Source: Escherichia phage vB_Eco_K-02 | Direction: 5' to 3' (one strand) | Sequence record: PQ436005.1 | Length of the DNA stretch: 44,896 nt | Shown here: in pieces, positions 38,819 through 39,314 of the stretch | Layout: each line of letters begins with the position of its first letter | Position numbering within the stretch: position 1 is the first letter of the stretch | Notes under the pieces: generated by a model | The model's input: the letters and a program-made list of their open reading frames with translations, nothing else | What the model was told of the DNA's origin: nothing | Database searches by the model: none | Translations under genes and position numbers: made by a program

Positions 38819-39082
38819 CTATTCCAGAATATTCCTCACGTAATCCTGCAACATGAACACTTTCAGCCGCAGCTGCCGTACGCATTCAGCGTTCTGAACG
38901 TCGATAGCTAAATCCTCGTCAGCGTCGCTACTTGGCGCTGCCAGTTTGCACGGAGGCTGCATCATCGTCGTATCCGGTAATGGAATTAGCGTTTGCGACG
39001 GCGTGGGACTTGAGCAGGACGCGAGCATCGTCGAAAGTGCACACGCTGCGACCTGGCGTTTTAATGTATTTAACGACTTCAC
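38819..39082 (-). CDS. o-spanin (Rz1-like lipoprotein)
   Basis: Signal peptide with lipobox LASC, Pro-rich mature part; begins inside the i-spanin ORF in a different frame. Confidence 0.55.
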   Translation of the reverse strand: MKSLNTLKRQVAACALSTMLASCSSPTPSQTLIPLPDTTMMQPPCKLAAPSSDADEDLAIDVQNAECVRQLRLKVFMLQDYVRNILE

Positions 39083-39314
39083 GGGTGATCACCTCTGATT
39101 TCGTCTTGCCTTCGTTGTCAGCGGCGGCGGCCTTTGATTCATCTTGCTGCTGCCGTTGTGTTTTCTTCGCTAACTCAGCCTGCGCTTTCTGCTGTTGCTG
39201 CGAAACGAGATTCGCCCGGCCTTCGCTCCAGCCGCTGCGATACTGGTAAATGCCGTGGGCGTAAGCCAGGATGATGAAACATGCTCCCGCTACGACAGTT
39301 GCTTTAAGATTCAT
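38928..39314 (-). CDS. i-spanin (Rz-like)
   Basis: N-terminal TM helix then Gln/Ala/Lys-rich coiled coil (QQQQKAQAELAKKTQRQQQ); overlapped by the lipoprotein ORF. Confidence 0.55.
   Translation of the reverse strand: MNLKATVVAGACFIILAYAHGIYQYRSGWSEGRANLVSQQQQKAQAELAKKTQRQQQDESKAAAADNEGKTKSEVITREVVKYIKTPGRSVCTFDDARVLLKSHAVANANSITGYDDDAASVQTGSAK

Follow-up and report, generated by a model that had tools for sequence, protein, structure and literature searches.

Two overlapping genes upstream of the scaffold gene

The window, that is, the whole stretch of 44,896 nucleotides (nt) of Escherichia phage vB_Eco_K-02 (PQ436005.1) analysed here, is a Kagunavirus (Guernseyvirinae) genome, and our subject is a predicted pair of inner-membrane (i-) and outer-membrane (o-) spanin genes at 38819..39314. 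This region contains exactly two open reading frames (ORFs), both on the minus strand, and the scaffold and major capsid genes follow on the same strand, where an earlier note made from the letters of the window had placed a spanin-like pair. The features are:

39314..38928, minus strand: i-spanin gene, 128 amino acids (aa); ATG start, residues 5-23 as predicted transmembrane (TM) anchor, then a polar, possibly helical domain in the periplasm with Cys92 as its one Cys; PHROG match
39082..38819, minus strand: o-spanin gene, 87-aa prolipoprotein with a 65-aa mature part; +1 frame relative to the i-spanin, GTG start, predicted lipobox LAS/C23; PHROG matches
39087..39096, minus strand: Shine-Dalgarno (SD) sequence of the o-spanin gene, AGAGGTGATC, lying within the coding sequence of the i-spanin; agrees with the anti-SD complement at 9/10 positions, read from the sequence
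38736..38032, minus strand: scaffold gene, directly downstream of the pair
38032..36983, minus strand: major capsid gene, downstream of the scaffold gene

The 2.8 kb around the pair are 97.8% identical to Escherichia phage vB_EcoS-phiEc4 (phiEc4), which is collinear with the entire window, and 94% identical to Golestan. The window opens with TCAT (positions 1..4; the other end is 44896), which reads ATGA on the minus strand, where the terS stop overlaps the terL start, and terL crosses the junction. Because of this overlap, and because terS and terL are adjacent in relatives, the two ends are contiguous, and the window is a circularised representation of the genome opened at the terS/terL overlap.

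The two coding sequences overlap by 155 nt and the o-spanin gene runs 109 nt beyond the i-spanin stop, an arrangement that is the “overlapped” spanin architecture. The i-spanin ATG is preceded at 5 nt by the SD sequence AAGGGG. Its product has a single hydrophobic segment at residues 5-23 (ATVVAGACFIILAYAHGIY; Kyte-Doolittle 1.72), with Lys4 on the N-terminal side of it and the rest of the protein below threshold, and this layout with one N-terminal TM segment is common to nine homologues. The i-spanin is accordingly a predicted type-II inner-membrane protein with an N-terminal TM anchor and ∼105 periplasmic residues. Gln, Ala, and Lys make up much of the stretch 33-72 (9, 8, and 6 of its 40 residues, respectively). 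The C-terminal part is better conserved and contains the sole Cys, at position 92; in an alignment of nine divergent homologues, reaching down to 33% identity, Cys92 and the motif ITxEVVKY..P.R.VC.F are invariant.

For the o-spanin gene, the GTG at 39082 is the sole start codon in the +1 frame that yields a signal peptide, and the GAGG core of its SD sequence lies 9 nt before it. The predicted precursor begins with MKSLNTLKRQVAACALSTMLAS, immediately followed by the lipobox Cys, and comprises a positively charged n-region (MKSLNTLKR), a 12-residue h-region, and the lipobox LASC with Cys23. Another tetrapeptide resembling a lipobox, VAAC (Cys14), was disregarded because nearly no hydrophobic core would remain. 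Residues +2 and +3 after the lipobox Cys are both Ser, with no Asp at +2, and because of the Ser at +2 the lipoprotein is predicted to sort to the outer membrane. The mature part contains seven Pro, with a Pro-rich N-terminal half, Cys45 and Cys67, and a conserved helix-like region at its C-terminus. When nine o-spanins were aligned (down to 34% identity), Cys45 and Cys67 were invariant, the lipobox Cys was present in each homologue, and the signal peptides diverged freely. No hydrophobic segment follows the signal peptide, and a unimolecular spanin of the T1 gp11 type was rejected since the o-spanin has no C-terminal TM segment.

Among the hallmarks listed in the earlier note, the lipobox LASC and the Pro-rich character of the o-spanin are both recovered here, as are the N-terminal TM segment and the Gln/Ala/Lys richness of the i-spanin, at residues 5-23 and 33-72, respectively; the coiled coil it had also ascribed to the i-spanin found no support in a heptad test (see below).

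Assignment to the Jersey spanin family

Among the PHROGs, phrog_2536 (“Rz-like spanin”) matches the i-spanin from end to end (positions 1-129 of 129, E = 2e-54), and the o-spanin has two matches, phrog_5672 (E = 3e-30) and phrog_1267 (E = 2.5e-17). In close relatives, the same genes at the same position are annotated as spanin in GenBank. A “Jersey” family of overlapped spanins has been described in 27 phages, including K1G, K1H, and K1ind1-3 (Kagunavirus), together with Jersey, SETP3, SETP7, HK578, and EP23 (Kongari et al. 2018, BMC Bioinformatics 19:326, PMC6139136). The paper gives a 155-bp overlap for Jersey, and Cys45 and Cys67 as conserved in the o-spanin (PMC6139136), and the window pair reproduces all three details. 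Several features by which two-component spanins are recognized (Summer 2007, Kongari 2018) are likewise present: an i-spanin TM segment, an o-spanin lipobox with its +2 residue, gene overlap, and periplasmic Cys residues.

The PHROG matches, the annotation of relatives, and the fit to the Jersey family thus uphold the initial reading of these genes as spanins, and we consider it very probable that these genes encode a Jersey-family two-component spanin, with overlapped architecture, that performs the final one of the three steps by which Gram-negative hosts are lysed, the breaking of the outer membrane.

Separation from the holins and the endolysin

The remaining lysis genes of the window are found near its start:

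2675..3160, minus strand (ORF open from 3211): endolysin gene; likely GTG start at 3160; PF00959 Phage_lysozyme, E = 9e-26; phrog_7 and phrog_33703
3138..3410, minus strand: holin gene, 90 aa; phrog_2508, E = 5e-34
3403..3711, minus strand: second holin or antiholin gene, up to 102 aa; phrog_2359 holin, E = 2e-29; a holin/antiholin pair in relatives

The length of the endolysin counted from 3160 agrees with the phiEc4 annotation, and the protein reads as soluble, with no predicted N-terminal TM or signal-arrest-release (SAR) segment. Across the junction, the endolysin stop lies 8,257 nt from the i-spanin start, and the start of the first holin gene 9,293 nt from it, in line with the “about 9 kb” stated in the earlier note for holins and endolysin at 2675..3711; the other way around the genome it is 35.1 kb. 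About 14 genes lie between the pair and the endolysin (small ORFs, terS, terL, portal, head morphogenesis, and Hoc-like genes), and the 8,257-nt gap means that this genome has no canonical contiguous holin-endolysin-spanin cassette.

A window-wide search for lipobox-bearing ORFs returned no other lipoprotein/TM pair and no other spanin candidate, near the endolysin or elsewhere. The remaining matches of that search were dismissed: a holin TM segment, a small membrane ORF, an Imm-like ORF, and ORFs inside or antisense to larger ORFs.

Position of the pair in relatives

The pair lies between the head-morphogenesis/Hoc-like and the scaffold/major capsid genes in Golestan and Bas70 (Kagunavirus) and in SETP7 and S100 (Jerseyvirus), and it has the same position in STP-1, Serratia phage Tsm2, Oekolampad (Dhillonvirus), and NHEP3 (a record without genus). 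In tblastn searches the i-spanin matched 528 phage records; its identity to the i-spanin of SETP7 is 64%. We further compared the 80 best IMG/VR loci related to the window i-spanin, one contig of which carries an identical i-spanin sequence. The pair is set among head genes in 69 of them, has an endolysin immediately upstream in 10, and has an unclear context in one.

The 10 endolysin-adjacent loci are the most distant relatives (34–39% i-spanin identity). The same context is seen in Klebsiella phage Kp4885-1 (OK490466, unannotated), where positions 2251-3460 contain a holin (phrog_20), a SAR-type endolysin (phrog_7), the i-spanin (phrog_2536, E = 3e-45), the o-spanin (phrog_5672, E = 4e-21), an HNH endonuclease, and terS, in this order. 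Because distant relatives keep this spanin family after the endolysin, the head-module position is a clade-wide trait and not a peculiarity of the window genome, and in Guernseyvirinae and Dhillonvirus it is probably the result of a relocation.

The split itself is already known and is usual for this phage group. The genome announcement of Schulenberg (Microbiology Resource Announcements (MRA) 2019, PMC6763661), a member of the Guernseyvirinae, states explicitly that the spanins are separated from the holin and endolysin; the separation is implicit in the paper on the Kagunavirus fBC-Eco01 (PMC9825357), and for Golestan the spanin is given as ORF7/8, with the holins and endolysin at ORF66-68 (PMC7203180). 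The spanin genes of T4 are not near t or e either (Kongari et al., PMC6139136). The earlier remark that a split lysis cassette is uncommon was therefore an overstatement, as the arrangement is fixed in hundreds of Guernseyvirinae and Dhillonvirus genomes, the T4 spanins are unlinked, and the separation is in print.

Proposed role in lysis

By analogy with lambda Rz/Rz1 and T4 PseT.3/PseT.2 (PMC6139136), the i-spanin and o-spanin would bind each other through their C-termini and form disulfide-linked complexes or homodimers. Presumably made from late minus-strand transcription shared with the head genes, such complexes would span the periplasm through the peptidoglycan mesh and, held inactive by the murein, accumulate harmlessly during late expression. 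The holins (3138..3711) would then trigger lysis, the soluble endolysin (2675..3160) would degrade the murein and free the complexes, and the freed complexes would fuse the inner and outer membranes, releasing the virions.

Under this scheme, linkage to the holin and endolysin genes would be unneeded, since the holin governs when lysis starts and the spanin need only be present beforehand. A place in the head-gene block would suffice, since late expression is all that the spanin genes need.

Transcription and points against the proposed account

From the o-spanin stop to the scaffold ATG (38736) there are 82 nt, on the same strand and with no terminator scored in between, and co-transcription of the pair with the head genes is plausible from this layout. 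Upstream of the pair lies a 375-nt region, divergent from two plus-strand ORFs (39690..40132), which includes the following ORF:

39519..39409, minus strand: 36-codon ORF

Several observations weigh against the account of a lytic spanin pair expressed together with the head genes. The Pfam models of lambda Rz and Rz1 (Phage_lysis PF03245 and Rz1 PF06085) match neither protein at E ≤ 0.1 and, because of this, the pair would function like Rz/Rz1 yet falls outside their sequence families; sub-threshold Pfam matches of the pair (DUF2514 and unrelated families) were treated as noise. No complementation or knockout experiment on Jersey-family spanins was found in the searched literature, and the spanin function proposed here draws on sequence features, genomic context, and family labels, with the i/o interaction, the disulfides, and the membrane fusion taken over by analogy. 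A simple heptad test gave no coiled-coil signal in the periplasmic helix of the i-spanin (hydrophobic occupancy of a/d positions 0.18, versus 0.23 in shuffled sequences). The single-sequence AlphaFold2 (AF2) model of this protein, with helices at 3-84 and 94-107, is of low confidence (mean predicted local distance difference test (pLDDT) 60, predicted template-modelling score (pTM) 0.27); it gives a weak hint of secondary structure. Two helices joined by a beta-containing linker have been predicted for Jersey-family i-spanins (Kongari et al. 2018, PMC6139136). With respect to expression, no promoter could be assigned to the pair, as a sigma-70 scan of 36.5–42.5 kb gave 5 matches versus 5.4 expected (chance level), and the hairpin directly upstream of the pair is terminator-like.

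Hairpins around the pair

Three hairpins were located in this part of the genome:

39339..39358, minus strand: upstream GC-rich hairpin GCCCTGC-loop-GCAGGGC, with 24 nt from its end to the i-spanin ATG; terminator-like, with a poor T tract
38764..38778, minus strand: spacer hairpin (T)CCGGG-TGG-CCCGG(G), in the spacer 38737..38818 and 29 nt before the scaffold ATG; no T tract after it
40205..40225, both strands: bidirectional terminator-like hairpin AAAGCCCC..GGGGCTTT, with T runs on both strands; between the Hoc-like gene (minus) and the moron (plus)

The upstream hairpin has a local fold z of -3.1. Across Kagunavirus and Jerseyvirus, its stem occurs as GCCCTGC/GCAGGGC, GCCCCGC/GCGGGGC, GCCCGGC/GCCGGGC, and GCCCGAC/GTCGGGC, with compensatory changes at two stem pairs (CG/GC/UA and GC/AU) and 98.7% of alignment cells paired. 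Loci with near-separate spanin genes have a different hairpin at this site. The closing pair of the spacer hairpin (CCGGG-NGG-CCCGG) varies between AU, GC, UA, and UG, with 100% of cells paired, and a T run after this hairpin in Jerseyvirus was ruled out by the DNA. Between Kagunavirus phages of E. coli and Serratia phage Tsm2 the spacer hardly varies, and the same holds among genera for the 45 nt ahead of the scaffold ATG. The covariation is modest, with distinct variants picked by hand and structures derived from the same sequences, and we regard it as a lead, not a finding. The flanking hairpins could be attenuators or RNA-processing or stability elements, and the spacer hairpin may be a control or processing element for scaffold and capsid expression.

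The spacer 38737..38818 looks better conserved than the flanking coding sequence. The bidirectional hairpin at 40205..40225 divides the packaging/portal/morphogenesis block from the spanin-scaffold-capsid block.

The conservation of both flanking hairpins with compensatory changes would also fit an arrangement in which the pair is a spanin but forms an insulated mini-unit between them, with its own or a processed transcript and no co-transcription with the head genes; the near-invariant 45 nt before the scaffold ATG would suit separate control of scaffold and capsid. However, the gap between the upstream hairpin and the i-spanin ATG is too small for a promoter, neither hairpin has a good T tract, the spacer hairpin was not scored as a terminator, and the scaffold gene lies only 82 nt away on the same strand. 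We see this arrangement as possible, though unlikely. A more elaborate proposal holds that the spanin cistrons are an insulated insert heading the scaffold-capsid unit, that the hairpins set a low spanin dose relative to scaffold and capsid, and that the whole goes back to a single adaptive move from the post-endolysin slot at the base of the Guernseyvirinae/Dhillonvirus-type head module; we consider it doubtful and offer it as speculation.

A non-lysis role and the neighbouring moron

Upstream of the pair, on the opposite strand, lies a variable, moron-like segment:

39788..40132, plus strand: moron-like lipoprotein gene, 114 aa; predicted lipobox LSGC with Cys19, second hydrophobic segment at ∼66-85; phrog_13472 (unknown function)
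39690..39791, plus strand: small ORF beside the moron

The moron is found at ≥ 95% identity in 10 phage records only, and at ∼30% in Aeromonas phages. It may be a candidate for superinfection exclusion. It was rejected as a unimolecular spanin, given its opposite strand, the ∼47 residues from lipobox Cys to TM segment, and its restriction to 10 close records. The same site holds other inserts in relatives, e.g. a methyltransferase in S100.

The proximity of this segment, the location in the head module, the absence of a Pfam Rz/Rz1 match, and the lack of a functional test of the Jersey family in the searched literature would all be compatible with the pair being a non-lysis envelope module (for superinfection exclusion or receptor masking) or an accessory of head assembly. 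Against this, homologues fill the canonical spanin slot after holin and endolysin in Kp4885-1 and in the 10 IMG/VR loci, the pair, in contrast to a moron, is present throughout the clade, and its removal would leave the window with zero spanin candidates. The pair also agrees with spanins in its overlapping i- and o-genes, its conserved Cys residues in the periplasm, and the summed length of its periplasmic parts, and we judge a non-lysis role very improbable.

Start and length of the o-spanin gene

Many public o-spanin calls are only 47–48 aa long; four of them, starting at the internal Met40 or Met41, are:

Golestan gp08: 4820-4963
Bas70_0009: 5320-5463
SETP7 record: 3853-3996
phiEc4: 5599-5745

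Starts of o-spanin genes are often mis-called, or the genes are left unannotated (Kongari et al. 2018, PMC6139136), and the 87-aa form is consistent both with that remark and with the Cys45/Cys67 numbering of the same paper. The functional o-spanin is the predicted 87-aa GTG-initiated lipoprotein precursor, and the 47–48-aa calls are truncated.

We estimated how often such an overlapping ORF would arise by chance by synonymously re-coding the i-spanin 20,000 times with the codon usage of the window. Of the re-codings, 3.5% kept the +1 frame open throughout the overlap, and 0.37% gave an open frame with a correctly placed lipobox-like tetrapeptide, in a test that makes no demands on start codon, n-region, or hydrophobic core. 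Comparative evidence against chance is stronger: a start codon yielding a lipobox-bearing ORF is present at the corresponding place in 79 of the 80 IMG/VR loci, and, because six loci have an i-/o-spanin overlap of ≤ 8 nt (the “separated” class), the o-spanin is an independent gene.

The notion that only the 128-aa gene is real, with the 87-aa +1 ORF accidental and a 47–48-aa ORF as the true product, follows the calls in most GenBank records and the phrog_5672 profile, built from such calls and only 47 positions long, but is almost certainly wrong, since the short product would have neither signal peptide nor lipobox, the start, charged n-region, core, and lipobox Cys of the extended ORF persist across loci despite a diverging signal peptide, and the strong SD sequence before the GTG, the low chance expectation, and the published Cys numbering all fit 87 aa.

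Significance

The discovery value of the pair is small, as the family, the overlapped architecture, and the separation from the holin and endolysin are already in the literature and in GenBank. Its practical value is in annotation, where an 87-aa GTG-initiated o-spanin stands against a propagated 47–48-aa ORF. The occurrence of the same spanin family in two genomic contexts exemplifies three-step lysis, in which spanins must be present and linkage is dispensable, and the flanking hairpins are a small lead for mapping late transcription in phages that are candidates for therapy.

Comparison with known systems

The T4 pair PseT.3/PseT.2 is encoded by separated, non-overlapping genes and belongs to an unrelated sequence family. 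No lysis genes are clustered in T4, whereas the holins and endolysin of the window still form a cassette. PseT.2 is a relatively large o-spanin (83 aa) with a predicted C-terminal helix, and its two Cys are needed (PMC6139136).

The likeness to lambda Rz/Rz1 lies in the combination of a type-II inner-membrane protein with an outer-membrane lipoprotein encoded in the +1 frame, in the periplasmic Cys, and in the predicted action after holin and endolysin. In contrast to the fully embedded Rz1 gene of lambda, the window o-spanin gene extends 109 nt past the i-spanin stop, and whereas Rz/Rz1 end the S-R-Rz/Rz1 cassette, the window pair is 8.3 kb from the endolysin. Mature Rz1 has 40 aa and Rz 153 aa, compared with 65 aa for the mature window o-spanin and 128 aa for the i-spanin, and the combined periplasmic length of the window pair (∼105 + 64 residues) is similar to that of Rz plus Rz1.

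Kp4885-1 and the 10 endolysin-adjacent IMG/VR loci encode the same i-spanin and o-spanin families with an overlap of 125–143 nt, at 34–39% identity to the window i-spanin. The Kp4885-1 pair stands directly after the holin and the SAR-type endolysin and just before terS, in a canonical cassette, whereas the window pair is in the head module. Schulenberg, a different Guernseyvirinae phage with 67.6% nucleotide similarity to Golestan (PMC6763661), has the same separated arrangement of i-spanin and o-spanin, a comparison made by gene arrangement.

The closest counterpart is the Jersey family, with which the window pair shares sequence family, overlap, o-spanin Cys residues, and genome position, with no substantive difference; the lipobox is LASC in the window and LSAC or LNGC in many Jersey-family relatives. 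The window pair is one further Kagunavirus allele of the Jersey family.

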